64,000 bases of DNA from assembly GCF_050920415.1 (NCBI RefSeq), contig NZ_CP169309.1. One strand, given 5' to 3'. How positions within the stretch are numbered: the first letter of the stretch is position 1; each line of letters starts with the position of its first letter. Positions 28,581 to 47,303 of the stretch are shown here, piece after piece. The notes under the pieces are model-generated. The model was not told where the DNA came from. It did not search any database and worked only from the letters and a program-made list of their open reading frames with translations. The translations under genes and the position numbers were made by a program. Source of the DNA: Escherichia coli (GTDB taxonomy: Bacteria > Pseudomonadota > Gammaproteobacteria > Enterobacterales > Enterobacteriaceae).

Positions 28581-30044
28581 TTACATCTTGGTATAAGGCT
28601 TAAAGCGTTCTTGCAGCTGGCGCAACTGGTCGATGCGCGCATCGTAACGCGCTTGTTGCAGGCTGCCTAATTTCACCTGAGAACTGGCGCTACTCAACAA
28701 GGAAATGGCCTGATCGAGTCGCCCGGCGAGCGCATAACCTTCTGCTCGCGCAGCCAGTTCCTGATCGCGGTTATTTAGTGCGGCTTCCGCCTGTGCCAGT
28801 AAATCCCAGCCGTTGCTGTCATCTTTATTGTTAAAAGTGTAGCGATTCAGAATATTGGCCGCTTCCTGTGGTTGCCCCCCTTGCAGATAAGCGTTCGCCA
28901 GGTTGAGCTGCAACACCGGATTGGTGCGCAAATCGCGGGCATTTTTCAGGCGATTGATAGCGTCATTGGCTTTGTTTTGCCCAAGATCGATATCGGTAGC
29001 CAGATCGAGATACCATGCGTTGCCAGGTTCTGCCGCCAGTAACGGTTGCAGCGTTTTACGCGCTTCGTCGTATTTATTGGCTTCCATCGCCTGTAAAGCA
29101 CGACCATATTGCGCCGCTCGTTGCTGACGAACGTTTCCTTTCGCCCATTCATCCAGCAAATCACTGGTGAGCTGATTACGTCCGGAATTATACATCCCCA
29201 GTGTGCGCGCTTTCGCCAGATAGAAATCCTCCGACGACTGCACCACCATCGGGCGCATCTGATTAGCACGGTTGCGGGCATCTGCCAGACGACTTTCCGG
29301 CAATGGGTGAGTCAATAAAATTTCCGGCGGACGCGAGGAGTAACGCGCCTGATCGAGCAATTTTTCGAGGAAGGTCGGCATCGCCTGCGGATCGAATCCT
29401 GAGCGTTGCAGCACCTGAATACCAATGCGATCCGCTTCCTGTTCATTTTGCTGGGTGAAGCTGATCATCCCCTGGCGCGTTCCCGCCAGTGTACCGGTCA
29501 GCGCTGCCATCCCCGCCTGCGGACTGGCCATCGCCAGTAAAATAGAACCTAACGCGCCGACCCAGGTAAGCGGTGCGCTGCGCTGTTGATCTTCCATCGC
29601 TCGCGCCAGGTGACGTTGGGTGACGTGGGAGATTTCGTGCGCCATAACTGAAGCCAGTTGACTTTCGTTATCGGAATAACGGAACAGGGCAGAGTGCAAC
29701 ACCACGTTGCCGCCAAAGAAAGCAAAGGCGTTAATTTCGTCGTTATTGATCAAAAAGAAATGGAACGGCGTCTTAACCGAATTGGCATGCGAAACCAGAC
29801 GCATCCCCAGCGAATTAATGTACTGCGTTAACAACGGGTCATTAATTAACGGCGCACTGCCGCGTAATTGGCGGACATAATAGTCGCCCATCTGCATTTC
29901 CTGACCAATGGAAAGCGTGCTTCCTGCGGAGGTTCCCATATCCGGCAAGGTGTCTGCGCTATCGGCAAACGCCGGGGCTACCTGACCGATAGTCATAGCA
30001 GCAATGAGGGTAGCAACCAGGTTTTTTTTCAACTGCCTGAACAT
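28581..30044 (-). CDS. bepA: Periplasmic M48 metalloprotease/chaperone with TPR domain (BepA)
   Basis: 487 aa; signal peptide; HEISH zinc-binding motif ([12 protein letters not shown]); C-terminal TPR-like repeats. Confidence 0.95.
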
Positions 30045-30256
30045 AACCTCTGTCCTGTGTTTCTGGAGATAGTCATTTGACCGATACTGTGAAATATCGT
30101 TCCCACCGCGCCGCCTTTGAGTGTAACGGCGAAGATTAGCCCACTCAAATGACTTTTCAGTTTCCTGAATCCGTCATAAAAAGCGAAGTCTTTTTTGTGA
30201 CATTTCGATACAATTGCGGATCACAATCCCGCTCTTGAGGTTCAGGGAAGGTCTTT

Positions 30257-31318
30257 ATGCTCGAAATGTTGATGCAATGGTATCGCCGCCGTTTTAGTGA
30301 CCCGGAAGCGATTGCCTTGCTGGTTATTTTAGTTGCCGGATTTGGCATTATCTTTTTCTTTAGCGGCCTACTCGCACCGTTGCTGGTGGCGATTGTGCTG
30401 GCCTATTTACTGGAATGGCCAACCGTGCGGCTACAATCAATAGGCTGCTCCCGACGCTGGGCGACGTCGATTGTATTGGTCGTTTTCGTCGGTATTTTGC
30501 TGCTGATGGCGTTCGTGGTAATGCCTATCGCCTGGCAACAGGGCATCTACTTAATCCGCGATATGCCGGGGATGCTCAATAAGCTCTCTGATTTTGCCGC
30601 CACGTTGCCGCGCCGCTATCCGGCGTTAATGGATGCGGGGATTATTGATGCAATGGCCGAAAATATGCGCAGCCGGATGCTCACCATGGGCGATTCGGTG
30701 GTGAAAATTTCCCTCGCCTCGCTGGTCGGTTTGCTGACCATTGCCGTCTATCTGGTGCTGGTACCATTGATGGTCTTCTTCCTGCTGAAAGACAAAGAGC
30801 AGATGCTGAACGCCGTTCGCCGGGTGCTGCCGCGTAACCGTGGACTGGCAGGACAGGTGTGGAAGGAGATGAATCAACAAATCACCAACTATATCCGCGG
30901 CAAAGTGCTGGAGATGATCGTGGTGGGGATTGCCACCTGGCTGGGATTCTTACTCTTCGGGCTGAACTATTCGCTGCTGCTGGCGGTGCTGGTCGGCTTC
31001 TCGGTACTTATTCCGTACATTGGTGCATTTGTGGTGACCATTCCGGTGGTTGGCGTGGCGCTATTCCAGTTTGGTGCTGGCACGGAATTCTGGAGCTGCT
31101 TCGCGGTGTATCTGATCATTCAGGCGCTGGACGGCAACCTGTTAGTACCTGTGTTGTTCTCCGAAGCGGTTAACCTGCATCCGCTGGTCATTATTTTATC
31201 AGTAGTGATCTTCGGTGGTTTGTGGGGATTCTGGGGCGTATTCTTCGCCATTCCATTGGCGACGCTGATCAAAGCCGTGATTCACGCCTGGCCCGATGGG
31301 CAAATCGCGCAAGAATAA
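30257..31318 (+). CDS. perM: AI-2E family transporter PerM (YfgO)
   Basis: 353 aa polytopic membrane protein; matches E. coli perM position and length. Confidence 0.9.
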   Translation: MLEMLMQWYRRRFSDPEAIALLVILVAGFGIIFFFSGLLAPLLVAIVLAYLLEWPTVRLQSIGCSRRWATSIVLVVFVGILLLMAFVVMPIAWQQGIYLIRDMPGMLNKLSDFAATLPRRYPALMDAGIIDAMAENMRSRMLTMGDSVVKISLASLVGLLTIAVYLVLVPLMVFFLLKDKEQMLNAVRRVLPRNRGLAGQVWKEMNQQITNYIRGKVLEMIVVGIATWLGFLLFGLNYSLLLAVLVGFSVLIPYIGAFVVTIPVVGVALFQFGAGTEFWSCFAVYLIIQALDGNLLVPVLFSEAVNLHPLVIILSVVIFGGLWGFWGVFFAIPLATLIKAVIHAWPDGQIAQE

Positions 31319-31354
31319 TCTTCAGCCCGACGAACTGTTTCGCCGGGCTGATTT

Positions 31355-32203
31355 TTAGGGTTCCTGACGTAAATAAATCGCCCGATAACAAATACTCACC
31401 AACACTGCACCGCCGATAATATTACCCAGCATCACCGGGAGCAGATTGGCGGTAATAAAATGGCTGACCGTCAGTGCCGGAAAATTGTCTGCGCTACTGT
31501 GCGCCAGTTGCCAGAAGGAGGTAGGGGCGAAATGGCGAATGGCAATGGCGAACGGAATCACAAACAAATTGGCGATACAGTGCTCAAAGCCACTGGCGAC
31601 AAACAGGGTGATGGGCAAAATCATGGCGACGATTTTGTCGCATAATGAACGTCCGCAATAACTCATCCACAGCGCCAGACAAACCATCAGATTGCACATA
31701 ATGCCGAGGCTGACAGATTCAGTAAATGTATGATGCATTTTGCCCTCGGCGCAGTGTAAAACCGCGACTCCCCACATCGCGTTTTCACTCATCACCAGCC
31801 CGGAAAACCAGATTAACAAACTGAAACAGGCAATACCTGCCAGATTACCGCAGGCCACCAGAAGTGCATTAATCAGCCATGTTCGCCAGCTAATAATGCC
31901 CCGACTTTTTGCCATCACCGTCATTACCGACGAGGTGAACAGGCTGGTGCCGCAAACCGCCAGCAAAATAAAGCCGAGTGTAAAGCAAAGGCCACCCACC
32001 AGATGGGTTAATGCCTGTGAAGACGGGGCATCGGCGATAACGGTAAGGTAAAAAGTAAATCCGATCGTCATAAACACGCCTGCGGACATCGCCATTAAAA
32101 AGACCGACACTTTGCTGCGGGCAATTTTATGGGCGGCAATCCGTTCAGCGATTGCCGCTTTTCTGGCGCTCAACTGCAAGTCGAAAGAGAGTTTGTTTCT
32201 CAT
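31355..32203 (-). CDS. focB: Formate channel (FNT family)
   Basis: 282 aa; FNT-type multi-span protein directly downstream of the hyf operon. Confidence 0.9.
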   Translation of the reverse strand: MRNKLSFDLQLSARKAAIAERIAAHKIARSKVSVFLMAMSAGVFMTIGFTFYLTVIADAPSSQALTHLVGGLCFTLGFILLAVCGTSLFTSSVMTVMAKSRGIISWRTWLINALLVACGNLAGIACFSLLIWFSGLVMSENAMWGVAVLHCAEGKMHHTFTESVSLGIMCNLMVCLALWMSYCGRSLCDKIVAMILPITLFVASGFEHCIANLFVIPFAIAIRHFAPTSFWQLAHSSADNFPALTVSHFITANLLPVMLGNIIGGAVLVSICYRAIYLRQEP

Positions 32204-32224
32204 GCATACTCCTGCAAAAACAGA

Positions 32225-34237
32225 TTACAACACCTCGCGAACCGAGATCCCCAGCCGCTGCATTCGTGACAGCAGCGTGGTGCGCTTCATCCCTAATCGC
32301 GTCGCCGCGCCACGGGGCCCGGCAACAATGCCATTGGTTTCTCGCAATACCTGAACAATGCGCTTACGTTCTTCTTCGTCATTCTCTGGCGTCGTCGGGT
32401 GCAGTAACTGCGCCATTGAACTGCGAAGCGCTGAATCTTCATTTAGCGTCGGCAGTAAACGGCTTTGTCGGACATTAAGATGTAAATTCAGACTGTTACC
32501 GCGAGTCAGTAGTACCGCTCGCTCAATCACGTTTTCCAGCTCGCGCACGTTGCCCGGCCAGTCCCACGACATCAACTGGCGTAGCGCTTCTGTTGGAATG
32601 GCATCAATTGTGCGATTCATATGGCGAGCCATTTTTTGTGTAAAATGTTTTGCTAAAAGAGGGATATCTTCCGGACGGTCGCGTAGCGGCGGCAATTCCA
32701 GTGGAAAGACGTTCAGGCGATAAAAGAGATCGCTGCGAAACTGGCGATCTTCTACCATTTGCCACAAATCACGGTTGGTGGCGGCAATGACTCTGACATT
32801 CACCGGGATCGTTCTACTCCCACCGAGACGCTCAATTTCCCGCTCCTGTAATACGCGTAGCAGTTTGGGCTGAAGTTCTAACGGCAGATCGCCAATTTCA
32901 TCGAGAAATAACGTGCCGCCATCGGCAATTTCAAAACGACCACGATGAGTGTTAATCGCGCCAGTAAATGCCCCTTTGTCGTGACCGAATAACTCACTTT
33001 CCAGAAGACTGGCGGGGATGGCAGCGCAGTTGATTTTGACCAGCGGCTTGTCGCGTCGTGGGCTAAGTTGATGGATCGCTCTGGCGATCACCTCTTTGCC
33101 GGTTCCGGTTTCACCACAAATCAACACCGTACTGTCGCTCTTCGCCACAATATCTACCTGCTGGAGCAAATCTTCCATTGCCTGGCTTTGATAGATAATG
33201 TCACCGACGCCCAGATTCGAAAGGAGCTGCTCGCTAAGCTGGTGGTTTTCTTGCTGCAAGCTTTCCTGCAAATCGGTCATGCTACGCCAGGCATCGGCAT
33301 TGCCAACGGCAATAGCGATGCGATCGGCAATATGTTGTAGTAGCTGGCAGTTTTCCTCCCCAAAGAGAGTGGAAGAGGTATGCGCCAGCAACAATGCACC
33401 CGGTGTATGGTTGCCAAAGGTGAGCGGTATAAGGAGCGCAGATTCGCAGCCGTTAGATGCAAGTAAGTGTAATAACGGGTCGCGTTGCCAGAGAAACAGA
33501 TCGTCTGCACGGTGCGTCAAGGTCGGTTGTCGGGTTTGTAGCGTTTGTGTCAGCAATACACTTTCGCCAGGCATACAGCGTGGCAGACTCGCACAATGTG
33601 AGGCAGAAAGATCGCTGCACCACAGGCTGAACTTCTCGTTCTTTCGATGATCGCCCAGTACCATACTGACTGAAGCCAGACCGAAAAAATGATGGATCTC
33701 ACGAGCGACGTCAGCGATCAGATCGTCGAGATCAAGATGTGACAACACTGCATTAGTGATATCCACCAGTACCCGATGATGATCGCGATCTTTCTCCAGC
33801 AAACGCAGCGCCACCTGCTGTTCTTCATCATTGAGCCATGATTGCAGAACCGGAGTGATTATGTGTGCCAGCCAGTTAAACAGTGTGCAATCCTGGGGAG
33901 TAAAACGATTGCCGTGGGTGCGAATAAAGCGTAGCTCCGCCATTCCACTACTGCCGAGAAGGACGGCGTGGCGCGAATAATCGACCATCTCGCCCTGATA
34001 CTCTGTTGTTGCCGTCACATCGCTGCCATCATCATGGTAGCGGTAATAGAAGTTGCTTTTGAGAACATGCAGTTCAATAAGTTGTACCGGGCTGAACGGC
34101 GGCGGCAGCGGGATGAAGGCGCGTAATAAAGACGCCTTGCCGTGTTTCTGCGCTAACCGCTCCGCGAGCATTCCGTTTACCGCTTCAATTGTTATTCCTT
34201 GTGGCGGGGCAAACATCGCCTCGTCTGACATAGCCAT
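32225..34237 (-). CDS. hyfR: Sigma54-dependent transcriptional activator of the hyf operon (GAF + AAA+ + HTH)
   Basis: 670 aa; AAA+ sigma54-interaction motifs (GETGTGKE, GAFTGA) and C-terminal HTH. Confidence 0.9.
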   Translation of the reverse strand: MAMSDEAMFAPPQGITIEAVNGMLAERLAQKHGKASLLRAFIPLPPPFSPVQLIELHVLKSNFYYRYHDDGSDVTATTEYQGEMVDYSRHAVLLGSSGMAELRFIRTHGNRFTPQDCTLFNWLAHIITPVLQSWLNDEEQQVALRLLEKDRDHHRVLVDITNAVLSHLDLDDLIADVAREIHHFFGLASVSMVLGDHRKNEKFSLWCSDLSASHCASLPRCMPGESVLLTQTLQTRQPTLTHRADDLFLWQRDPLLHLLASNGCESALLIPLTFGNHTPGALLLAHTSSTLFGEENCQLLQHIADRIAIAVGNADAWRSMTDLQESLQQENHQLSEQLLSNLGVGDIIYQSQAMEDLLQQVDIVAKSDSTVLICGETGTGKEVIARAIHQLSPRRDKPLVKINCAAIPASLLESELFGHDKGAFTGAINTHRGRFEIADGGTLFLDEIGDLPLELQPKLLRVLQEREIERLGGSRTIPVNVRVIAATNRDLWQMVEDRQFRSDLFYRLNVFPLELPPLRDRPEDIPLLAKHFTQKMARHMNRTIDAIPTEALRQLMSWDWPGNVRELENVIERAVLLTRGNSLNLHLNVRQSRLLPTLNEDSALRSSMAQLLHPTTPENDEEERKRIVQVLRETNGIVAGPRGAATRLGMKRTTLLSRMQRLGISVREVL

Positions 34238-34266
34238 TAACAGTCCTTATTAATGAGAAATCCTTC

Positions 34267-34680
34267 TCACGCAATTTTTCTGGCCATCAGATAGATGGCC
34301 GGTTCCTGCACAATTTCATCCAACAGATGAATGAATTGAATGCTACGCGCCTGCCACACAGACGTCGCGTCATCTGCCAGTGGCGCGAATGCCCGGGTCA
34401 ACAGGGCGGTGTGGCTGGCGTCAATAACAATCTCACCAAAGGTCATCACCCCCAGCATCTTACGTCGGGCTTGCTCCTCTTCGACCTGTGCAAGCCAATC
34501 TTCGTATTCCGTCTGTGGGCAGCGGAAGGCGACATTCAGACAATCAATCACGCCAACGTGATGACCGATAGCCAACGAGTAATACATTACCTGGGAGCTG
34601 TGTTCCGGCATCTCGTCGCTACTGGCGATAAATTTTTTTCGCAGTGTCCAGAAAACAATTTCCCCGCACTCCTCAGCCAT
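34267..34680 (-). CDS. hyfJ: Hydrogenase-4 component J (HycH-like maturation factor)
   Basis: 137 aa; position and length match hyfJ. Confidence 0.85.
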
Positions 34681-35431
34681 GTAACCCCCGGAGAACGCGA
34701 AAGAGTTGCTGAACGATACTATTGAGACGCGGATCGTCGGCTTCGCGCAACCAGGTGTTAACCCGATTTCCTGTAGGATCGTCGCTTAAATGGCGCAGGA
34801 GCCGATCGCAAATTTCTCGCCCCTGACGATAGCCCGCCAGCCGCCTCGCTTCTCGCTCAATGGCGATACGCTGTGATGGCGGGATATGCGGCCACAGCGG
34901 TTGCATGGTCACCCCGGTGGGATCGCGATAATCCACCGCGTGAATCTTCTGTTGTAGCAAACCGAGCGCCACGGCGAAACCGTGAATGGTGGCGGCCGGT
35001 GTTGGCGGGCAGCCGGGGATCCAAACATCAATGGGGACAATGGTGTCGCTGCCGCCCCAGACGCTGTAGAGATCGTGGAAAATACCGCCGCCGACACCGC
35101 ACGCGCCGTAGGAAACACAGATTTTATGATCGGGGGCAGACTCATATGCCCGAAGTGCAGGCATACGCATCGCCCGGGTGACTGCGCCAGTAAATAACAA
35201 AATATCGGCGTGACGAGGTGATGAAACAACCTTAATGCCAAAGCGTTCTGCGTCGAACACTGGCGTGATGGCGGCAAAAATTTCGATTTCACAGGCGTTG
35301 CAGCCGCCACAATCCACGCGATAAACGTAGGCCGAACGACGGATATCCTGTAGCAAATGCTGCTTCATCTTTTGCGTTTGTTCGTCCAGCGTGATGGGCT
35401 GGCTGACATGTTGCGTAAGCACTGGACTCAT
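34673..35431 (-). CDS. hyfI: Hydrogenase-4 small subunit (NuoB-like, [4Fe-4S])
   Basis: 252 aa with conserved Cys ligands (…GGCNACEIE…, …WIPGCPP…). Confidence 0.9.
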
Positions 35432-35973
35432 AGCTGCTCCTTAGCCACCAGCGGTTCATCTGTGTCGTCGTTGATCAGCGTCGCGCGTTGTTTGCATTCC
35501 GGGCAGACGCTCGCTTGCGCCCACAACATTTCGCGGTTTTGTGGTGCATTTTGTTGCTGTGCCAACAGTTCTGCAGCCAGTGCGACGGTTTTTTGCGGGG
35601 CAAACGGGCGTTCGCAACGGCTGCAACGTTGTAGATGGAACTTCGCGCGGGTATAGAGATCGGCTTTATTGGTGACGGTCAGTTCAAAGTTATCAGTAAG
35701 CTGAATGGCTCTGGTCGGGCACACTTCTTCACAACGTCCGCAGTAAATACAACGCCCCAGATAGAGCTGCCAGGTGCGCGTATTTTGCTGGTCGTCGGTC
35801 TGGATAGTCAGCGCATTTGCCGGACAAGCACAGGCGCAGGCACCGCAGGCAATACATTGGCTGGGCATCAGGTCCGGTTTCCCGCGAAAGCCTGGGCTGA
35901 CCTCCAGTGGCGCGAAGGGATATTTCACCGTCGCGGTTCCGGCGCGCATAATAGTTTTCAGTAACTTCAGCAT
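35428..35973 (-). CDS. hyfH: Hydrogenase-4 ferredoxin-like subunit (2x[4Fe-4S])
   Basis: 181 aa with two CxxCxxCxxxCP motifs. Confidence 0.9.
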
Positions 35974-35982
35974 TTTCTGTCC

Positions 35983-37698
35983 TTACTTCAGCGGCGAACG
36001 GTTACGATCAATGCCGTAGCGTTCGATCTCTTTATACGGCACGGTTTTTGACTGGCGCTTGCGCACATCAACCAGCGTCACACGGTCGGTACAGGAGTAG
36101 CAGGGATCAAGGCTACCGATAATCAGCGGTGCGTCAGAAACGGTATTGCCGCGCAGCATGTAACGCAGCACTGGCCAGTTGGCGTAGGTGGCGGCACGAC
36201 AGCGCCAGCGGAACAATTTTTGGTTATCGCCGAGCATGCTCCAGTGCACGTCTTCACCGCGTGGCGCTTCAACAAAGCCCAGCGCGAATGCGTGAGGTTT
36301 ATAGCTAAAGCCTTCGGTCAGCAGTGGGGTATCCGGCATGTTGTCGAGGGCAAATTCCAGCATTGCCAGCGAATCAAACGTCTCTTTGACACGGACCATC
36401 ACGCGGGAGAAGACATCGCCGCCGGTAAAGGTAAACAGCGTTTTTGGAATATTGCCGTAGTCGGCGTAGGGGTGATCAAAGCGCAAATCACGGGCAAAAC
36501 CACTGCCACGGATCAGCGGCCCTACGGGGCTATAATCACGGGCGATTTGTCGGTCGAGAATGCCAATGCCCTGAGTGCGTTGTTCCATATTCGGCGTGGC
36601 AAGCAGCATCTCTACCAGCTCCGACACGTCGGCGCGCATCTCGCGCACCAGTTTCATCGTTTGCAGACGTTGCTCTTTGAGAATATCGCGGCGAACACCA
36701 CCAATCAGATTCAGACCGTAGGTTTTACGCGACCCGGTCAGCAATTCCGCCATCGTCATCGACTTTTCCCGCACGCGGAAAAATTGCATAAAACCGGTAT
36801 CAAAACCAACAAAATGGCAGGAGAGGCCAAGGTTGAGCAAATGACTATGCAGCCGTTCGACTTCCAGCAGAATCGAGCGAATAGTATGCGCTCGTTGCGG
36901 CACCTCAATCCCCAGTGCATTTTCAACCGAGTTGGTATAGGCCACACTGTGGGCAAAACCGCAAATCCCACACACGCGGTCCGACAAGAAGGTCACTTCG
37001 TTGTAGCCCATCCGCGTTTCTGCCAGTTTCTCCATGCCGCGATGGACATAAAACAGGCGGTAATCAGCATCGACAATATGCTCGCCATCCACAAACAAGC
37101 GGAAGTGACCTGGTTCATCGGAGGTGATATGCAGCGGGCCAACAGGGATCACCCGCGCATCGCTGTTGCCCTCGTTGATAAACGGATACGTTTCGGTATC
37201 AGTCGTCGGTTCAGGGCGCAGGCGATAATCCATCGCGTCTTTGCGCAGCGGATGCATATCTTCCGGCCAGTCATCGGGCAACACCAGGCGACGCTGATCC
37301 GGCAGGCCAACCGGAATCAGCCCGTACATATCGCGAATTTCTCGCTCGCCCCAGACCGCGGCAGGGACGCGCGGTGTGACTGACGGAAACTCCCGACTGT
37401 CGGCATCGACCAGTGCCTTCACCACGATCCAGCATTTTTCGGCCCCTTCCATTGAAAGGGCATAATAAACCGCGTAATGACCGTTAAGTGTCCGCTCGTC
37501 GTTGCCAAACAGGACCGGAAGCCAGCCATCATGTTGATAATAAAGATAATGTACAACGTCAGGCAGCAGATTTATTTTCACCGTAATGGTGACCTGTTCA
37601 GGCGTTTGTCGCTCTTCATCCAGCACCGCGCCGGGGAACTGCGTTTTCAGGGCGGCGAGAATCGCTTCGCCACGATTTGACGATGAATTAACGTTCAC
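35983..37698 (-). CDS. hyfG: Hydrogenase-4 large [NiFe] subunit, GTG start
   Basis: 571 aa from GTG at 37698 ([17 protein letters not shown]...) with GGAGA 9 nt upstream, overlapping the hyfF stop; Ni-binding CGICG and C-terminal DPCYSC motifs. ORF track is extended 15 codons. Confidence 0.9.
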
Positions 37699-39268
37699 TG
37701 TGTTTCTCCGAAACAGATGCGGTGCCTGAAGGCAAAAAATCATGCCAGGTGCTACGTTGTGCAGGCAGGTCGTGCGTCCCTGAGAGGACTATAGTGGAAG
37801 CGCCCGCCAGGATCCTGATGACAGGTTGTGGAATATGCGTTCCCATCGCCAGCATCATGACCAGCAGAATCACCATTGGCGAGGTGGTCAACCAGCCAAG
37901 TTCACCCCGGTTAACGGCCTGCGGCGGTTTCGCCATTAACACCCGCGCAGCCATCCGTACCAGGCCCGCCAGCACCAGCGTTAACAGCAATAACAGCAGG
38001 ACGATAATCAACAGGTGATTACGAGCCAGTCCGGCGGTAACGGTCATAAATTCGCTAAGAAAAATGTTGAAGGGCGGCATCCCGGCCAGCGCCAGCGCAC
38101 CGCCGCCAAACAGCACGGCGGTAAATGGCATGATTTTGAGCATTCCGCAGACGACGTTGAGATCGCGCGTGCCGTACTTGAGCAGTACATTGCCGGAACC
38201 GCAGAACAGCAGCGTTTTTGCCAGACTGTGGTTTAAGGTGTGCAGCAGCGCAGCAAAAATTCCCAGCGGCCCGCCAATGCCTAGCGCCACCGCGACCAGT
38301 CCCATGTTCTCCACGCTGGAGTACGCCAGCAGACGCTTAATGTCCCGCTGTACCAGAATGAAAAATGCCGCCACGGCAACCGACAACATGCCGAAGATGA
38401 GCAACAACCGGTTGGGGAAATCGCTGCCGATGGCCTGGCAAATAATGATGTAATAGCGAATCAGCACCAACAGCGCGCAGTTCAGCAATACGGCGGAGAG
38501 CAGGGCGCTGACCGGACTCGGCGCTTCACTGTGAGCATCCGGCAGCCAGGCGTGCATGGGAAATAGCCCGGTTTTGGTGCCAAAGCCAATTAGCACAAAC
38601 ACAAAGGCCAACAGCATTAATGTTGGGTCAAGCAAGGACGATTGCTTAAGAACCTCGCTCCAGAATATCGCCATTTCTGCCTGCGGCATAACGCTGGCGG
38701 CGTTGGCGTATACCAGCACGGTACCGAACAGACCAAAAGCGACACCAACAGTACAAATAATGATGTACTTCCATGCAGCTTCCAGAGATGAACGCTGACC
38801 GTAAATGCCTACCAGAAACGCCGAGCTTAAGGTGGTGGCTTCGATTGCCGCCCACATCACAATCAGGTTATTGCTGGTAACAACCAGCAGCATGGTGAAC
38901 AAAAACAGATGGAAGAAACCGTAGTAATCGCACAGCGTAACGGGTGAAAGCTCGCCGTGAGCCACTTCATGACGCATGTAGCCAATCGAGTAAACACCGG
39001 TGAGAAAGCCAATCACACCAAGAATGGCGAGGAACAAACCGCCCAGACCATCAATATGAAGCCACAGTCCGGCGGCGAATATTTCTTCCGCATCCGCGGC
39101 GGTTTTGACCACCCAGAGTGCCAGAATCAGCAGCAGCGTGATCCCTAAGCTATGTAATACTGTCACCGTGCGAGTCGCAGAGTGTCCCCGTTTCCGGCAG
39201 GCAAAACAGAGCAGCGAAAAAAGCAGCGGCGTGAGCAGGAGTAAAGCGAACATCACAGAATAACTCAT
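37688..39268 (-). CDS. hyfF: Hydrogenase-4 membrane subunit F (NuoN/Mrp antiporter-like)
   Basis: 526 aa polytopic protein. Confidence 0.9.
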
Positions 39269-39272
39269 CTCA

Positions 39273-39923
39273 TTATCCCTTCAGCGCGGTCAAGTTGTTC
39301 ACGTCCAGCGTGCCGTGGGTACGCCATATTTTTCTTGCCAGCAACACCATCACAACGACGGCGAAAATGGCATCGGTAGCGATACCAATTTCCACCAGTT
39401 CCGGTGCACGCCAGGCAAGAAGTGCCAGCACCAGATGGGAGCCGTTTTCCATCAGGCAGTAACCAAAAATTTGCCGCAGGATATTGCGCTGGCTGACAAT
39501 GCACAGCAGGCCAAGCAGAAAATGACCTAACGCCACCGCCAGCGCCGGTTTCAGCCCGGTAGCCATCGGTAGCTTCACGGGCTGAACGACAAATGCGCAA
39601 AGCAGGACAATTAATGCCGCGAGCAATGCCATCATTGCCGGACCGAATAACGCTTTTTCCGGGAGGTTCTGGGGAATATTTCGTGCAGCGTAAATCATGA
39701 TTAACGGTACCATCAGTACTTTGGTGATAAAGGCGCTGGCGGACCAGATCAGCAGTTGCTCTGCGGCGAACAGGCACGAGAGGGTGGCGAAAATAGACAC
39801 CAGCACCAGCGACTGGCAGGCGTAAAATCCGCATGACAGGCGATAGCTTTTGACACTAATCACAAACAGCGATGTCAGCATCATCAGTCCCGCCAGATTA
39901 TTTACGATCATAGAACCGGTCAT
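39273..39923 (-). CDS. hyfE: Hydrogenase-4 membrane subunit E
   Basis: 216 aa polytopic protein. Confidence 0.9.
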
Positions 39924-39934
39924 TCATCATCTCC

Positions 39935-41374
39935 TTACTGCAACCAGGTCGCGGCGAATACGCTGGAAATCAGCGACATCACAATCAGTACAATCAACAC
40001 CAGGCGCATTGATCCTGGCAGCGGTGCGGCATCAGCGACGGCCTCGCTCGGTTTGCCAGGCACAACGCGACCAAACCAGCGAATAAACCAGGCGAAACTG
40101 GCAATCGATTCAATCATCAGCAGAATCATGGCGGGCAGCAGGATCCAGTACTCCACTGACAACGAAAAACCGGCAGCAAACAGTGGGAATTTACTGAAGA
40201 AGCCGTTGAACGGCGGCACGCCAGTAATCGCCAGCGCGGCCACGCAGAAACCCACGCCTGGCAACGGCAGGGTGTGCAATACGCCACGCAGACGCGGCAA
40301 CAAGCGCGTGCCGCAGCTGTAACTCAGCGCACCGGCTACAAGGAAAAACAGGCTTTTAGCGAACGCGTGGTTGACGATGTAGGCGATGCTGCCCTCCAGT
40401 GCCAGCCGCGAGCCGAAGATGGAGAGCGACAAGCCGAAGAACATCCAGCCAAGTTGAGTGATGGTCGACCAGGCCAGCAACCGCTTCATATCCTGCTGCG
40501 GCAAATACATCAGGAAGCCGTAAAGAATGGTGACCAGTGCCATGACCATGCCAACGCCGCCAATCACATGCGGGATATTGCCGCCGTCGATAATGGCGCG
40601 GGCAAAAATGTAAACGCCCACTTTCACCATCGATGCGGCGTGGAGATAGGCGCTGATCGGTGTTGGCGCTTCCATTGCATCCGGTAGCCACGCTTGCATC
40701 GGTAGCTGGGCCGATTTCCCCCACGCGGCAAACAGGATGCCACCATAAACCAGATAGCGTGCGTCGCCGTGTAACTCGCTCATCGCGCTAAGCGCAAACG
40801 TTCCGGTCTGCAAAAACAGCGTGGCGGCGGCAAGATACAACCCCAGCGAACCGATATGAGTGATAAGTAACGCTTTTAGTGCTGAACGTTGCGCTTTATC
40901 GCTCTGGTAATAACTGATCAACGCCCAGGAGCAGCCGCCCGTAATTTCAAAAAACAACAACTGACCGAGCAGCGTCGAGGAGAGTACCAGTCCCGCCATC
41001 GCGCCGATAAAAACCAGCAAAAATGCGTAATAACGATTCGTGCCGTTATGCGGGTGTTCGCGATTTTTATCCGTCAGATAACCCGTGGAGTAGATCGTGA
41101 CCAGCAAACCGAGGAACACCACCACAAACAGAATCAGCGTACTCACGCGATCAATGATCAGGCCAAACAACGCCACATCCCCCACGTTGACCAACGTCAA
41201 CGTGACGGCAACTTTATCGGCCTGATAAAACGCGGAGATCAGCGACAACATGCACAGCGTGGTCAGCGCGGCGAACAAAATCCCCCATTCGGCGGCCCGA
41301 CGTTGTGGCGAAAACGAAACGACCAGTGCGCCGATAAAAGGCAGCAATAACGTCGTCAGAGCAAGATTTTCCAT
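39935..41374 (-). CDS. hyfD: Hydrogenase-4 membrane subunit D (NuoM-like)
   Basis: 479 aa polytopic antiporter-like protein. Confidence 0.9.
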   Translation of the reverse strand: MENLALTTLLLPFIGALVVSFSPQRRAAEWGILFAALTTLCMLSLISAFYQADKVAVTLTLVNVGDVALFGLIIDRVSTLILFVVVFLGLLVTIYSTGYLTDKNREHPHNGTNRYYAFLLVFIGAMAGLVLSSTLLGQLLFFEITGGCSWALISYYQSDKAQRSALKALLITHIGSLGLYLAAATLFLQTGTFALSAMSELHGDARYLVYGGILFAAWGKSAQLPMQAWLPDAMEAPTPISAYLHAASMVKVGVYIFARAIIDGGNIPHVIGGVGMVMALVTILYGFLMYLPQQDMKRLLAWSTITQLGWMFFGLSLSIFGSRLALEGSIAYIVNHAFAKSLFFLVAGALSYSCGTRLLPRLRGVLHTLPLPGVGFCVAALAITGVPPFNGFFSKFPLFAAGFSLSVEYWILLPAMILLMIESIASFAWFIRWFGRVVPGKPSEAVADAAPLPGSMRLVLIVLIVMSLISSVFAATWLQ

Positions 41375-41390
41375 ATTCCGTCAGTGCTCC

Positions 41391-42338
41391 TTACAGACCG
41401 GTTAACCAGAAGACCCAGGCAAGCGCAGCAAGGCTGAAGCCAAGCCAGGTCACATGGTGAATGAGTAAAAAACGCCCGCGTGCCAGCGTGTTTTCTGCGA
41501 TAGAGGCCAGAACAAAAATCAGCAAAACCTTGAGCAGCGTAACGACAAGTGAAGTCAGCAGGCAGGTGAGAGAAAGCTCTTGCGCGCGCCCAAAGGGCAG
41601 AAACAGGGCCACAAACAGTGCTGCCATCACGACCTGTTTCAGCCCCAGCCCCCATTTCGCCAACGCCAGCCCGGCACCGGAATATTCGGTCAGCGGGCCT
41701 TCCTGTAATTCCTGTTCTGCTTCAGCAACATCAAAGGGAATTTTTCCCATCTCAATGAAGCAGGCAAAACCACAGGCCAGTAACGCCAGTACGGTGGTTA
41801 GCGGCGAGTTCCAGCCCGTCGCCAGCGTCTTGCTGATCATCTCGATATGCGTGGAATCCGCTATCAGCGCCAATACCAGCAGTGAGAGAATGAGCATTGG
41901 TTCGACCAGAATGCCGAGCGTCAACTCGCGACTGGCACCGACACCCGCAAACGGACTTCCGGTATCCAGCCCGGAAAGAGCAAAGAAAAAACGAAACAGG
42001 GCAAGAAGATAGATAAGGGTGATCAGATCGCCGCCGCCCGCAAAAGGGGAAACAGTAATAAATAGTGGTAGGGCCATCGCCAGCACCAGCATGCTGCTGA
42101 TTAATACCCACGGCATCAGGCGGAACATCAGACCTGAAGATGTCGGCGCAACTTCCTGGCGTTTAAACAGTTTGTGGATATCGCGATAATCCTGCCAGAT
42201 CCCCGGTCCGCGACGGGAGTGCATACGCGCGCGTATCTGCCGGGAAATCCCCGTAAAAAGCGGGGTTAGCGCCAGCAGAATCACGGCCTGTGCTAACGCA
42301 AAAATGATCAGATATCCGTCGCAAAGAGTTTGTCTCAT
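41391..42338 (-). CDS. hyfC: Hydrogenase-4 membrane subunit C (NuoH-like)
   Basis: About 315 aa from MRQTLCDGYLIIFALAQ...; ORF track is extended 7 codons. Confidence 0.88.
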   Translation of the reverse strand: MRQTLCDGYLIIFALAQAVILLALTPLFTGISRQIRARMHSRRGPGIWQDYRDIHKLFKRQEVAPTSSGLMFRLMPWVLISSMLVLAMALPLFITVSPFAGGGDLITLIYLLALFRFFFALSGLDTGSPFAGVGASRELTLGILVEPMLILSLLVLALIADSTHIEMISKTLATGWNSPLTTVLALLACGFACFIEMGKIPFDVAEAEQELQEGPLTEYSGAGLALAKWGLGLKQVVMAALFVALFLPFGRAQELSLTCLLTSLVVTLLKVLLIFVLASIAENTLARGRFLLIHHVTWLGFSLAALAWVFWLTGL

Positions 42339-42348
42339 GGTGATTTCC

Positions 42349-44367
42349 TTAGACGGCAATAGCGATTAGCAGCACAACCAGTGCGGCGACCACATACAGG
42401 CAATAGAGACGAAAGTCGCCGCTTTGCAGATGCTGTATTTCTTTGGCCAGCCGTTGGGTGGCGCTCACGATGGGGCGGATCACCCGCTCATCCCAAAAGG
42501 GTTCTGTGCTCTGAGCCCTGGCGGTGATGTGCGCGAGACCTTTGTTCAGCCTCAGCGTAGGGTCGAGCTGTTGTCGTAGACGAAATAGCGCAGAAAAGAC
42601 CACACGCAGCGGCTGCATCACGCCATTGCCTGACGGGGCCATCGCATTTTCCCAGCCGTAGCCGCATGCCCAGGCATCTCCTGTGCGACGAAACGCTGCG
42701 CGGCGCGAACGACACCACAGCCAGTAAAGGCCAGGCAGCAAAGGCATCGCCAGTAGTAACAGCAACAGTAATGAGGGAGTGACCCGTGTATGAAACGTGC
42801 CGGGTACAAGTGCCATTCCGCTGGCGACAGTGACGGAAGGGGTATTGGTAAACGCATGGGCAATGTGCATTATCTTCGGTGCCAGCCAACTGGCACTAAG
42901 CGCAATGAATACGCAGAGTGCCGCGAGCAGTAGCATGGCGACGATCATCGTATTTGGCACTTCCTGTGCCTCTTCAGCGTGTGTACTGCGCGGCGCACCA
43001 CAGAAAGTAATGCCGTACATTTTGACGAAGCACATTACTGCCAGCCCACCAGTGACTGCCAGCATCACCATAGCAATAGGACCCGCAAGTTGTAGCGCTA
43101 CGGCTTCCACACGACTTAGTGAGAACAGCGACTGCCAGGTGTACCATTCGCTGATAAAACCATTCAGCGGAGGAATGGCTGATATCGCGAGGCAACCAAT
43201 CAGGCATGCTGCGGCTGTCCACGGCATCCGTTTTGCCAGTGCCCCCATTTTTTCCATGTCGTGGGTATGCAAACGCGAAATAATCGCACCCGCGCCGAGA
43301 AATAGCAGCCCTTTGAACAGCGCATGGTTGAGCAGATGAAACAGTGCGCCGAGCAGTCCAACCACGGTGAGCAGCGGGTCGTGCAGTGACAGACCGACCA
43401 TGGACACACCGACCGCCAGCAAAATAATGCCGACGTTTTCGACGGTACTCCAGGCCAGCAGCCGTTTGATATCCTGTTCCGCCAGCGCATACAGCACGCC
43501 CAGGAGCGCGGAGATTGCGCCGATCGCCATCACCAGAATGCCCCACCACAGCGGCAAACCCGTTTGCGCCAGCAGATCCATCGCCACTTTCAGGATGCCG
43601 AAAATACCGATTTTGACCATTACGCCAGACATCAACGCCGAAGCGTGCGATGGTGCGGCAGGGTGAGCGCGCGGCAACCAGCTGTGCAACGGCATCATCC
43701 CGGCTTTCGCGCCAAAACCGAAGAAGGCCAGCAGGAACACCGCCGACGCCAGCCCCGGAGAAAGTGAAAGCGTGCGGAAACTGGCAAAATCGAGGTTGCC
43801 GCTTTCGCGCCACATCAGCAAGAAGGCAATCATAATCAGCACCGATCCGGCGTGGGCGATAAAAAAGTAGAGCATGCCAGCGTTGATTGACGTTTTATCC
43901 TGCCTGGCAATGACCAGAAACCAGGAAGACAGCGACATCATTTCAAACAGCACGATGAACCAAAAAGCGTTGTCCATCACCAGCAGGGCAACCATCGATG
44001 CGATGAAAAGATTCATAAAGAAGCCCATCGCCGCCGCGCCTTTGCCCTCGTATTCGCGCATATAAGTCAATGAATAGAGCGAACAAACCACCACCAGCAA
44101 GGAGATAACCAGCACCATAAATGCCGAGAGGCTATCCATTCGCAGGGTTAAATCGGCAAAGTCAAAAGGCGTGGCAAAACGGGCGACTAAAGTTACGCCT
44201 GCATGTAATTGCGTAATTCCGCTGATGATGCCAATCGCGCCGCCCACCAGCGATGTGATGCCGGAAAGCTTAATAGCCAGTCTGTCCAGACCGAGTAAAA
44301 ACAGCGAAGCCAGACTGGCAAACAGATAGAGGATCAGCGACCAGGTTAATAATTGCAGGGCATCCAT
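42349..44367 (-). CDS. hyfB: Hydrogenase-4 membrane subunit B (NuoL-like)
   Basis: 672 aa polytopic antiporter-like protein; overlaps hyfA stop by 1 nt. Confidence 0.9.
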   Translation of the reverse strand: MDALQLLTWSLILYLFASLASLFLLGLDRLAIKLSGITSLVGGAIGIISGITQLHAGVTLVARFATPFDFADLTLRMDSLSAFMVLVISLLVVVCSLYSLTYMREYEGKGAAAMGFFMNLFIASMVALLVMDNAFWFIVLFEMMSLSSWFLVIARQDKTSINAGMLYFFIAHAGSVLIMIAFLLMWRESGNLDFASFRTLSLSPGLASAVFLLAFFGFGAKAGMMPLHSWLPRAHPAAPSHASALMSGVMVKIGIFGILKVAMDLLAQTGLPLWWGILVMAIGAISALLGVLYALAEQDIKRLLAWSTVENVGIILLAVGVSMVGLSLHDPLLTVVGLLGALFHLLNHALFKGLLFLGAGAIISRLHTHDMEKMGALAKRMPWTAAACLIGCLAISAIPPLNGFISEWYTWQSLFSLSRVEAVALQLAGPIAMVMLAVTGGLAVMCFVKMYGITFCGAPRSTHAEEAQEVPNTMIVAMLLLAALCVFIALSASWLAPKIMHIAHAFTNTPSVTVASGMALVPGTFHTRVTPSLLLLLLLAMPLLPGLYWLWCRSRRAAFRRTGDAWACGYGWENAMAPSGNGVMQPLRVVFSALFRLRQQLDPTLRLNKGLAHITARAQSTEPFWDERVIRPIVSATQRLAKEIQHLQSGDFRLYCLYVVAALVVLLIAIAV

Positions 44368-44984
44368 TAGCGTTGCTCCTGAGTGAGGGAAAGGGGATCC
44401 TCCCCGCCATTGGCAAACCAGCTTGCGGCAAGGCGCTGTTTTTCTTTCATCTGACGTTGCAGGCTATCGTCGGTGATCAGCCGTAACGCATGATTCGGGC
44501 AAGCGCGAACGCAGGCCGGACCTTCTGGCAAGAAATCACACAGGTCGCATTTCACCGCGACGCTCTGGACACCCGGTTCCCAGCGCAGCAAAGCATGTTG
44601 GGTCGGCGCGTTTTCTTCGCCGTCTTTGAGTGAGCCGTCAGCCTGAAAAACATATTGCGCAGGGGCATTCACCGGACGGCTTCCTGAAGCGCTGATTGCG
44701 CCAAATGGGCAGACCACGGCGCAAAGCTTGCAGCCAATACAGAGGCTTTCGTTGAGTTGGATCGCATCATCTCTCTGGGAGATGGCATTGACCGGGCAGA
44801 CCTGCAGGCAAGGGGCTTCCTCACAGTGATGACACACGACAGGGGCAGTGAGTGTTGACGTCTTCGCCAGGGCCAGGCGCGGGTGTTGCTGTAAACCTTG
44901 CGTTTTATGCACGTCCGAACAGGCAGCGAGACAGGTATTACATCCTGTACACCACAGTGGTTCGGCCACCACAAAGCGGTTCAT
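44367..44984 (-). CDS. hyfA: Hydrogenase-4 ferredoxin-type subunit A (4x[4Fe-4S])
   Basis: 205 aa from ATG at 44984 (MNRFVVAEPLWCTGCNTCLAAC...) with GGAG RBS; four Cys clusters. ORF track is extended 13 codons. Confidence 0.9.
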   Translation of the reverse strand: MNRFVVAEPLWCTGCNTCLAACSDVHKTQGLQQHPRLALAKTSTLTAPVVCHHCEEAPCLQVCPVNAISQRDDAIQLNESLCIGCKLCAVVCPFGAISASGSRPVNAPAQYVFQADGSLKDGEENAPTQHALLRWEPGVQSVAVKCDLCDFLPEGPACVRACPNHALRLITDDSLQRQMKEKQRLAASWFANGGEDPLSLTQEQR

Positions 44985-45025
44985 GTCGGCTCCTTGAAAA
45001 TGATATGAAACATTGCATTTCATAT

Positions 45026-45041
45026 TGCATAAAGGATGCCA
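45026..45041 (-). promoter_or_regulatory. Sigma54 (-24/-12) promoter of the hyf operon: TGGCAT-N5-ATGCA on the minus strand
   Basis: Minus-strand TGGCATCCTTTATGCA has GG and GC 10 nt apart as in the TGGCAC-N5-TTGCA consensus; about 42 nt upstream of hyfA; consistent with HyfR being a sigma54 activator. Confidence 0.6.
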
Positions 45042-45236
45042 GTCTGATTAATTTAATATATTCAATAAGTTATGTATTAACTGGATTCTGAACGGTACAA
45101 AAATGATGGTCATTAACGTTCAGCAATAAATGGATTCGACACCCGTGTCGCAGGGGAAAGCGAGAATGTGATCTTGATCACGAGAAGTGAGGTGTGCTGG
45201 CCGCAAGCGCAGCCAGCACTGAATGGAGCAAAGTAA

Positions 45237-45707
45237 TCAGGCGTGTTCTTTCAGCCAGTTCAGCACAACGTCGTGGTGATTGCTGGTTTTGAAATCGTCA
45301 AAGACATGTTCGATTTTGCCATCAGCGTCAATCAGGAAGCTGATGCGATGAATACCATCGTAGGTTTTGCCCATGAAGGACTTTTCACCCCAGACGCCGA
45401 ATTGTTCGCACACCTGGTGGTCCTCATCAGACAGGAGCGTAAAGTTAAGCAGCTCTTTTTCCGCAAAACGGGAGAGTTTTTCGGGTTTATCGGTGCTGAT
45501 ACCCAGCACATCAACGCCCGCTTTTTTCAATTCATCCATGTTATCGCGTAAGCCGCAGGCCTGTACGGTACAGCCGGGAGTCATGGCTTTTGGGTAAAAA
45601 TAAACCAGAACACGCTGTCCCTGGAAGTCGGTCAAATTAACTTGTTCTCCGTCTTGATCCGGCAAGCTAAATTTCGGTGCGATATCACCGGCTTTCAGTG
45701 GATTCAT
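45237..45707 (-). CDS. bcp: Thiol peroxidase Bcp (peroxiredoxin)
   Basis: 156 aa; MNPLKAGDIAPKFSLPDQDGEQVNLTDF... with the peroxiredoxin TPGCT motif. Confidence 0.95.
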   Translation of the reverse strand: MNPLKAGDIAPKFSLPDQDGEQVNLTDFQGQRVLVYFYPKAMTPGCTVQACGLRDNMDELKKAGVDVLGISTDKPEKLSRFAEKELLNFTLLSDEDHQVCEQFGVWGEKSFMGKTYDGIHRISFLIDADGKIEHVFDDFKTSNHHDVVLNWLKEHA

Positions 45708-46279
45708 TACTTAACTCCATCCTGTTCATCATGTGGGGAATAATTGACGACGTTTATACTGCCTTGTGCATTGAGTTCTGTACATAGGGCTTTAAACGCT
45801 TGCTCAATATTTGCTGCATCCGCAGAGGCGGGACTGTGGGCGGTTATCTGAATATGCAACTGTGCAGCCCGTTCATTTTCAGCAGGTTGCGTGCGCGACA
45901 CCAGCTCCGCAATGTTCATATGGTGCGCGTCGAAAAGTGCCGTGAAGCGTTCAATTAAATGCGGGGAGTCTGCCACATCGACCTGAACCCAGACAGATGC
46001 TGGCATTGGCGGACGCGGACGCGCCGTCGTGCGCTTCATCACGATTAAAAGATCCAGTTCGGCACCTTTCAACGGTAACGTTGATTCAATCAGAGTAATG
46101 GCATTCCATGAACCGGAAAGCAGCATGATAAACGTGAACTCTTCTCCCAGCATCGCCAGGCGACTGTCTTCAATATTACAGCCGCAACTACTGACATGAC
46201 GGGTGATGGTGTTCACAATTCCAGGGCGATCGGCACCCAACGCAGTGATCACCAGATAATGTTGCGATGACAGTGTCAA
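45707..46279 (-). CDS. gcvR: Glycine cleavage system transcriptional repressor, probable TTG start
   Basis: 190 aa from TTG at 46279 (TLSSQHYLVITALGADRPGIV...), AAGGAA 9 nt upstream; ORF track runs 22 codons further upstream from another TTG. Confidence 0.88.
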   Translation of the reverse strand: MTLSSQHYLVITALGADRPGIVNTITRHVSSCGCNIEDSRLAMLGEEFTFIMLLSGSWNAITLIESTLPLKGAELDLLIVMKRTTARPRPPMPASVWVQVDVADSPHLIERFTALFDAHHMNIAELVSRTQPAENERAAQLHIQITAHSPASADAANIEQAFKALCTELNAQGSINVVNYSPHDEQDGVK

Positions 46280-46424
46280 ACTGGTTATTCCTTTAAGGGG
46301 TGAGTTGTTCTTAAGGAAAGCATAAAAAAAACATGCATACAACAATCAGAACGGTTCTGTCTGCTTGCTTTTAATGCCTTACCAAACGTACCATTGAGAC
46401 ACTTGTTTGCACAGAGGATGGCCC

Positions 46425-47303
46425 ATGTTCACGGGAAGTATTGTCGCGATTGTTACTCCGATGGATGAAAAAGGTAATGTCTGTCGGGCTAGCTTGAAAA
46501 AACTGATTGATTATCATGTCGCCAGCGGTACTTCGGCGATCGTTTCTGTTGGCACCACTGGCGAGTCCGCTACCTTAAATCATGACGAACATGCTGATGT
46601 GGTGATGATGACGCTGGAGCTGGCTGACGGGCGCATTCCGGTAATTGCAGGGACCGGCGCTAACGCTACTGCGGAAGCCATTAGCCTGACGCAGCGCTTC
46701 AATGACAGTGGTATCGTCGGCTGTCTGACGGTAACCCCTTACTATAATCGTCCGTCGCAAGAAGGTTTGTATCAGCATTTCAAAGCCATCGCTGAACATA
46801 CTGACCTGCCACAAATTCTGTATAATGTGCCGTCCCGTACTGGTTGCGATCTGCTCCCGGAAACGGTGGGCCGTCTGGCGAAAGTAAAAAATATTATCGG
46901 AATCAAAGAGGCTACAGGGAACTTAACGCGTGTAAACCAGATCAAAGAGCTGGTTTCAGATGATTTTGTTCTGCTGAGCGGCGATGATGCGAGCGCGCTG
47001 GACTTCATGCAATTAGGCGGTCATGGGGTTATTTCCGTTACGGCTAACGTCGCAGCGCGTGATATGGCCCAGATGTGCAAACTGGCGGCAGAAGGGCATT
47101 TTGCCGAGGCACGCGTTATTAATCAGCGTCTGATGCCATTACACAACAAACTATTTGTCGAACCCAATCCAATCCCGGTGAAATGGGCATGTAAGGAATT
47201 GGGTCTTGTGGCGACCGATACGCTGCGCCTGCCAATGACTCCAATCACCGACAGTGGTCGTGAGACGGTCAGAGCGGCGCTTAAGCATGCCGGTTTGCTG
47301 TAA
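46425..47303 (+). CDS. dapA: 4-hydroxy-tetrahydrodipicolinate synthase
   Basis: 292 aa from ATG at 46425 ([19 protein letters not shown]...). Confidence 0.95.

Follow-up and report, generated by a model that had tools for sequence, protein, structure and literature searches.

The minus strand of a 64,000-nucleotide stretch of Escherichia coli DNA (contig NZ_CP169309.1 of assembly GCF_050920415.1; the window, below) carries, between about position 45041 and position 31322, what we identify with high confidence as the chromosomal hyf operon, in a form that is undamaged, ancestral and driven by sigma-54, and of the FHL-2 (formate hydrogenlyase-2) type with a group 4a [NiFe]-hydrogenase. Nothing that can be read from its genes contradicts the identification as a complete hyf (hydrogenase-4, Hyd-4) operon. 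The locus itself and its sigma-54 promoter are already known, being those of the textbook hyf operon; the difference from K-12 lies in hyfG, the gene for the catalytic large subunit, since the HyfG of the window keeps a conserved 16-residue VGPxxRxSG segment that is gone from K-12.

The operon comprises twelve collinear minus-strand genes, hyfABCDEFGHIJ-hyfR-focB, with bcp and yfgO as neighbours, and their order along the window (bcp, hyfA, B, C, D, E, F, G, H, I, J, hyfR, focB and the convergent yfgO) agrees, flanks included, with the annotation of K-12 MG1655 and with that of NZ_CP169399.1 by the Prokaryotic Genome Annotation Pipeline (PGAP). The latter record, from E. coli strain MFDS1022581, is 100% identical over 13.2 kb in a megablast search with window positions 32000-45200 against 5426 complete E. 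coli genomes, and a further 4280 E. coli chromosomes match at 95-99% identity, every one of them annotated hyfA-hyfR. Translation and global alignment to K-12 revealed no internal stop and no frameshift in the 12 genes, with 96-99% amino acid identity for the proteins and 96.6-98.1% nucleotide identity for the genes. The claim of the initial annotation that the locus is complete and intact, hyfR and focB included, holds because internal stops are absent and eleven of the genes have their K-12 lengths; the twelfth, hyfG, is 48 bp longer since the K-12 copy is deleted. The extent given there, 32225-45041, takes in hyfA to hyfR and the promoter and stops short of focB (31355-32203), position 32225 belonging to the hyfR stop codon. 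The genes were also described as tightly packed with many overlaps of 1-8 nt, and overlaps do exist, at only four of the 11 junctions (A/B, 1 nt; F/G, 11 nt; H/I, 4 nt; I/J, 8 nt); the other seven junctions are gaps of 4-29 nt.

Family assignments point to the same enzyme type. The NCBIfam equivalog models exceed their curated cut-offs for HyfB, HyfD, HyfE, HyfF and HyfH; HyfC, HyfG and HyfI match the NuoH, NuoD and NuoB families, respectively, and the FHL-2-specific subunits HyfD, HyfE and HyfF are all present besides HyfB and HyfC. In the Pfam search, HyfR contains a GAF domain (PF01590), a sigma-54 interaction AAA+ domain (PF00158, 251 bits) and an AAA lid (PF25601), which make it by domains a cognate AAA+ enhancer-binding activator type, and FocB matches PF01226 (Form_Nir_trans) at 215 bits over residues 20-273. 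HyfG aligns with HycE of the FHL-1 complex (PDB 7z0s_E) over residues 7-571 (E = 1e-292) and has the metal-ligand motifs CGIC at 243-246 in RVCGICGF (C243, C246) and DPCYSC at 531-536 in DPCYSCTDR (C533, C536); its C-terminal extension begins after R539, at the cleavage motif R539/VTLV that has been described for HyfG (PMC7384014). The GTG start of hyfG is in accord with the same paper, and both this start and the 11-nt overlap with hyfF are alike in K-12.

The loci of the window and K-12 differ in length by exactly 48 bp, which global alignment places entirely in hyfG, so that K-12 HyfG has 555 aa against 571 aa in the window and lacks residues 386-401 in frame. The missing 48 bp are flanked by a 10-bp direct repeat, GCCCGTGATT; judged by these bounds, the pattern is that of a slipped-strand deletion, the exact endpoints of which are ambiguous because they fall inside the repeat. 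About 110 HyfG/HycE homologues of other genera were compared, and every one keeps the segment, which is absent only in E. coli-type sequences; K-12 therefore has the deleted form of the gene and the window the ancestral one. Ten of the 16 positions are invariant in an alignment of 34 sequences with 74-89% identity. In addition, the segment aligns without gaps to HycE (ARDFSNVGPMVRASGH), to MbhL of Pyrococcus (AIEMGAVGPTARGSGI) and to the motif SGPILRGSGIDWDLR of the 49-kDa/ND7 subunit of complex I, so that it is free of gaps across solved structures ranging from an archaeal hydrogenase to complex I, and the alignment of HyfG with HycE takes in the corresponding ARD..VGP..R.SG segment.

The deletion is common in E. 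coli. A 148-nt probe with the segment at its centre has matches in 4294 genomes. In 2179 of these the match extends over the full probe, and in about 2100 it falls into two pieces spanning 100 nt, the signature of the deletion, with DH5-alpha and many natural isolates among the carriers. A 60-nt query across the K-12 junction, evaluated in an evenly spaced sample, matched in one piece in about half of the cases and in two pieces in the other half, and coverage did not separate the alleles as BLAST joined the halves. Over 250 nt on each side, the K-12 allele does not differ from another deletion allele, which is compatible with a single origin of the deletion. The searchable literature makes no mention of a 16-residue gap in HyfG; the original papers of 1997, 2002, 2004 and 2016 lie outside that scope and may note it. 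AlphaFold2 models of both HyfG alleles, built from the 34-sequence alignment, have mean values of the predicted local distance difference test (pLDDT) of 61.8 and 58.9, falling below 50 around the segment, and no structural inference is drawn from them.

A sigma-54 promoter in the spacer between bcp and hyfA would set the start of operon transcription about 31 nt ahead of hyfA. The promoter sequence, TGGCATCCTTTATGCA at 45041-45026, equals the K-12 hyfA sigma-54 site at 16 of 16 bases, and the pattern TGGCAT-N5-ATGCA has this single occurrence, on the minus strand, in the 64 kb, where chance alone would give 0.12. Between the 3' end of the site and the hyfA ATG at 44984 there are 41 nt (about 42 nt in the initial annotation), and the stretch from the box to the ATG, including the 5' leader, is wholly identical to K-12. 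Over the whole bcp-hyfA spacer, six single-base differences from K-12 are found, among them the base directly 5' of the TGGCA box, which is C in the window and A in K-12.

The K-12 site, ATGGCATCCTTTATGCA, corresponds to peak OS23 of a sigma-54 chromatin immunoprecipitation sequencing (ChIP-seq) study, for which the fold-above-threshold is 16, the start is predicted 31 nt from hyfA and the EcoCyc status is 'confirmed' (Bonocora et al. 2015, PMC4591121), and the bcp-hyfA spacer gave the strongest peak of RpoN holoenzyme in genomic systematic evolution of ligands by exponential enrichment (gSELEX) with NtrC present (Shimada et al. 2021, PMC8743547). By transfer from this base-identical K-12 site, sigma-54 would be expected to bind the site in the window as well. 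With the C of the GC doublet set at -12, the predicted transcription start is position 45015, which precedes the hyfA ATG by 31 nt. The ATG at 45023, from which the list of open reading frames (ORFs) draws a 218-aa 'hyfA', would not be transcribed because it is upstream of this predicted start; the start codon is the ATG at 44984, with AAGGAG at 44995-44990 ahead of it.

A sigma-54 matrix, the count matrix of 186 promoters printed in PMC7658346, was used to score 127,970 positions of the window. The hyfA site reaches 12.0 bits and rank 8, and it is the sole intergenic site among the top eight, the runner-up scores being 0.47 bits in the bcp-hyfA spacer and 5.1 bits within 700 nt upstream. No rival site thus appears within 700 nt upstream, in line with the promoter proposed in the initial annotation, and TGGCAT-CCTTT-ATGCA stands as the one credible sigma-54 site of the spacer. 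The seven positions that outscore it all fall within coding sequence; hyf genes contain six of them, and the five of these in sense orientation lie on the minus strand at 33813-33798, 40553-40538, 32415-32400, 34971-34956 and 38223-38208, one of them about 200 nt upstream of focB.

These higher scores, together with the possibility, reportedly raised by Skibinski and colleagues in 2002, that hyfR-focB may have a transcript of its own, are what can be said for the alternative that the operon is driven by another promoter, either a different sigma-54 site or, further upstream, a sigma-70 promoter. Primer extension in the same work reportedly mapped the start to 30 bp upstream of hyfA, and hyf expression is reported there to depend on sigma-54 and on FhlA/HyfR. 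We regard the alternative as highly improbable, given that the next score in the spacer is 0.47 against 12.0 bits and that a hairpin stands at the bcp end, at 45194-45219. In addition, all seven higher scorers are intragenic, and the main-text tables of PMC4591121 list none of them among the ChIP-seq peaks; the intragenic matches were accordingly set aside as internal promoters, and those inside hyf genes are probably compositional. The hairpin, which has an 11-bp stem (GTGCTGGCCGC / GCAGCCAGCAC) just after the bcp stop, is likely the bcp terminator, and would insulate the hyfA promoter from read-through.

A promoter of the sigma-54 type requires an AAA+ activator, and this would be FhlA and/or HyfR, responding to formate, low pH and anaerobiosis, if published K-12 work is a guide. 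Two inverted repeats 100-140 nt upstream of the -24 box, the one listed in Table 1 and a second, TGATCAAGATCA, at 45172-45183 on the minus strand, are invariant relative to K-12 and are possible candidates for HyfR/FhlA sites. Both misfit the published FhlA palindrome, TGWC-N6-GWCA, which has 65 matches in the window compared with 73 expected and only a one-mismatch match upstream of hyfA.

The operon would, by homology, encode an enzyme whose soluble arm consists of HyfA, HyfH, HyfI and the catalytic HyfG, and whose complex-I-like membrane arm is composed of the five subunits HyfB, HyfC, HyfD, HyfE and HyfF, with HyfJ as an assembly factor, HyfR as the activator and FocB as a formate channel. 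Formate dehydrogenase H, the Hyp maturation proteins and the HycI protease would be supplied from elsewhere in the genome, because none of them is encoded in the operon. As judged from its open frames, the operon in the window is potentially functional as a working hydrogenase. Several points weigh against a sigma-54-driven operon of this function. The hyfA start site at 45015 is a prediction carried over from K-12; the binding site of the activator was not located, matches to the FhlA consensus being at chance level; a Pfam search of HyfR returned no helix-turn-helix domain at E <= 1e-5; and neither a protease gene nor one for formate dehydrogenase belongs to the operon. A further point comes from K-12, in which no Hyd-4 activity was seen in 15 strains even with strong promoters and with swaps of the HyfG and HycE tails (Finney et al. 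2020, PMC7654741). In that study, protease supply was judged 'not the sole factor', and the HyfG alignment covers the last 93 residues only (PMC7654741). The FHL-2 of E. coli has been termed a 'long-standing mystery' (Lindenstrauss and Pinske 2019, bioRxiv 10.1101/563510).

It is a serious possibility, though one to which we give somewhat less than an even chance, that the locus is intact on paper and yet silent or dispensable in the window strain as in K-12, a cryptic operon heading to decay with no part in hydrogen metabolism. Besides the failure of engineered promoters to give Hyd-4-dependent H2 in K-12 (PMC7654741) and the missing protease gene and fdhF, its distribution speaks for this. 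At least 80% of the region is held by 4291 of the 5426 complete genomes, so that about 21% are without hyf, and hyfABCDEFGHIJ was found to be specifically absent from phylogroup B2 in all strains examined (Touchon et al. 2009, PMC2617782). An 'ordinary core locus', as the initial annotation called it, is thus ordinary and known, but core is an overstatement. A further 412 weaker matches with 80-90% identity were rejected as divergent hyf loci, as they are cross-matches of about 110 nt from hyfR to glnG.

Independent lesions in sampled carriers point in the same direction as the patchy distribution, and outright pseudogenes occur among the hyf genes of many other E. coli lineages. In a survey of ten loci, including the window-identical record and K-12, for which PGAP flags were combined with our own check, four are fully intact with a full-length hyfG (the window-identical record, UPEC69, TUM13936 and an O157:H7 strain), and K-12 has the 48-bp deletion as its only lesion. 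Two loci combine frameshifts in hyfD and focB, another two are damaged in hyfB, D, F and I, and one has the 48-bp deletion along with hyfB and hyfD frameshifts. In hyfD the damage is a -1 frameshift or the loss of about 208 bp, in hyfB a -1 frameshift, in hyfF and hyfI a stop or frameshift, and in focB a frameshift; full-length and deleted hyfG backgrounds are affected alike. When the megablast ranking was sampled at even spacing, 11 of 45 rows spanned the query without any insertion or deletion. By extrapolation, some 1100-1200 genomes, or roughly one carrier in four, would be as clean as the window; the figure is approximate, since the sample is sparse and the collection has a clinical bias, and point nonsense mutations escape detection in it.

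Nevertheless, several observations are at odds with a cryptic operon. All 12 genes are open in the window, as they are in three of the eight other natural isolates, including O157:H7. In the hyfG span tested, most changes relative to K-12 are synonymous (17, against 4 that are not), and amino acid identity of 96-99% at a nucleotide identity of 96.6-98.1% indicates purifying selection. The negative activity data all come from K-12, the hyfG of which has the 16-codon deletion, and FHL-2 enzymes are active in Pectobacterium and Trabulsiella (PMC7384014; bioRxiv 10.1101/563510). On a separate matter, the hyf allele of the window is unusually divergent, with at least 99% identity in only 18 of 4710 matching genomes and differences of 2-3% from K-12, O157:H7 and the other sampled loci, which suggests that the strain is from a less-sampled lineage.

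Comparison with known systems delimits what is particular to the window. The hyf operon of K-12 MG1655 (b2481-b2492) resembles it in the 12 genes, their order, the flanking genes, the -24/-12 promoter and the 5' leader, and is unlike it in the shorter hyfG described above. The hyc operon of E. coli, encoding FHL-1 with hydrogenase-3 (cryo-electron microscopy structures 7Z0S and 7Z0T), has a soluble arm homologous to that of hyf and has sigma-54 dependence in common with it, with a site at hycA (PMC4591121). In contrast to hyc, hyf also encodes HyfD and HyfF, which are antiporter-like, and HyfE, a small membrane subunit; it has its own activator gene hyfR and formate channel gene focB, and is without the hycI protease gene and the hycA repressor gene. 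In Pectobacterium atrosepticum and Trabulsiella guamensis, the FHL-2 operons, which are active, have the hyfA-J architecture of the window, and relatives of these species among the search matches, such as Pectobacterium betavasculorum, have full-length HyfG proteins of 570-580 aa that are 75-89% identical and keep the 16-residue segment. Unlike the operon of the window, those of Pectobacterium and Trabulsiella also encode the protease HyfK, and Pectobacterium has hyp and fdhF in the neighbourhood (PMC7384014, PMC7654741). FHL-2 activity has been demonstrated for the latter two genera, in contrast to the predicted activity of the E. coli enzyme.

The features of the region are collected in Table 1. 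The hyfC start is the ATG at 42338 and not the TTG at 42359 of the ORF list. At the distal end, the convergent spacer between focB and yfgO is 36 nt long and holds a hairpin that likely marks the end of the operon. No family was matched in an Rfam search at gathering thresholds over 30000-46500.

Two long ORFs inside hyfG and hyfB were flagged initially as lying on the opposite strand and as not being genes. The second part is borne out by the substitution pattern and by the codon alignment with hyfG, but the first applies to one of them only, since 36220-37383 is on the plus strand inside hyfG and 42974-43813 is on the minus strand with hyfB. The antisense frame of hyfG is open over a run of 443 codons because stops in it need TTA, CTA or TCA, which are rare in hyfG (0, 0 and 5 codons, respectively). 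Over 36220-37383, reading in the hyfG frame gives 17 synonymous and 4 non-synonymous differences from K-12, and reading in the antisense frame gives 1 and 20, the signature of a shadow ORF. That one or both ORFs are real overlapping genes, for which their lengths of 387 and 279 codons might be invoked, is so improbable as to be nearly negligible: neither is annotated in any record examined, the first is the codon-aligned antisense frame with its excess of non-synonymous changes, and the second begins with GTG in the +2 frame of hyfB and is without independent support. By their frames, both are by-products of codon usage, and not genes.

Table 1. Features of the hyf region, in window coordinates (aa, amino acids; NF, NCBIfam model; FNT, formate-nitrite transporter)
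Feature	Coordinates	Strand	Basis or remark
Terminator-like hairpin, 13-bp stem	31322..31351	-	Pattern scan; directly after focB stop
focB, FNT-family formate channel, 282 aa	31355..32203	-	276/282 aa as in K-12, ungapped
hyfR, sigma-54-dependent activator, 670 aa	32225..34237	-	661/670 aa as in K-12
hyfJ, HycH-family maturation/assembly protein, 137 aa	34267..34680	-	NF011664, 208 bits (cut-off 145)
hyfI, hydrogenase small subunit, NuoB family, 252 aa	34673..35431	-	K-12 alignment and family match
hyfH, Fe-S subunit, NuoI/HycF family, 181 aa	35428..35973	-	NF006076, 359 bits (cut-off 270)
hyfG, [NiFe] large (catalytic) subunit, GTG start, 571 aa, full-length	35983..37698	-	E = 1e-292 to HycE
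Shadow ORF, 387 codons, not a gene	36220..37383	+	Codon-aligned antisense of hyfG codons 106-493
48-bp hyfG segment absent from K-12, codons 386-401	36496..36543	-	K-12 alignment
hyfF, antiporter-like membrane subunit, 526 aa	37688..39268	-	NF005041, 1175 bits (cut-off 951)
hyfE, FHL-2-specific membrane subunit, 216 aa	39273..39923	-	NF008556, 366 bits (cut-off 136)
hyfD, antiporter-like membrane subunit, 479 aa	39935..41374	-	NF005097, 808 bits (cut-off 430)
hyfC, NuoH/HycD-like membrane subunit, 315 aa	41391..42338	-	K-12 alignment and family match
hyfB, antiporter-like membrane subunit, 672 aa	42349..44367	-	NF005086, 973 bits (cut-off 667)
Out-of-frame ORF, 279 codons, not a gene	42974..43813	-	Same strand as hyfB, its +2 frame
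hyfA, ferredoxin-like 4Fe-4S subunit, 205 aa	44367..44984	-	K-12 alignment
Sigma-54 promoter TGGCAT-CCTTT-ATGCA	45026..45041	-	GG at -24, GC at -12, the doublets 10 bp apart
Inverted repeat CGACAC-GGG-TGTCG	45137..45150	-	About 100 nt upstream of -24 box; unchanged relative to K-12

The strain that has served as the reference for nearly all hydrogenase-4 work has a catalytic-subunit gene 16 residues short, and the allele contrast between the window and K-12 is a testable lead on the silent hydrogenase-4 of the latter. We propose tentatively, and with appreciable doubt, that the 48-bp deletion inactivates or destabilises the catalytic subunit and is a main reason why hydrogenase-4 activity has had no unambiguous demonstration in K-12, and that strains with the undamaged allele, O157:H7 among them, can make an active and possibly energy-conserving FHL-2. 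A disabling deletion is disfavoured by the H2 phenotypes that some physiological reports have ascribed to hyf in K-12 backgrounds (cited in PMC7654741), and by the other hyf genes of K-12, which are still intact. If the K-12 deletion were disabling, the 25-year puzzle of the 'silent' hydrogenase-4 would reduce to the repair of an allele, and claims on Hyd-4 physiology from K-12 backgrounds would need to be read again.

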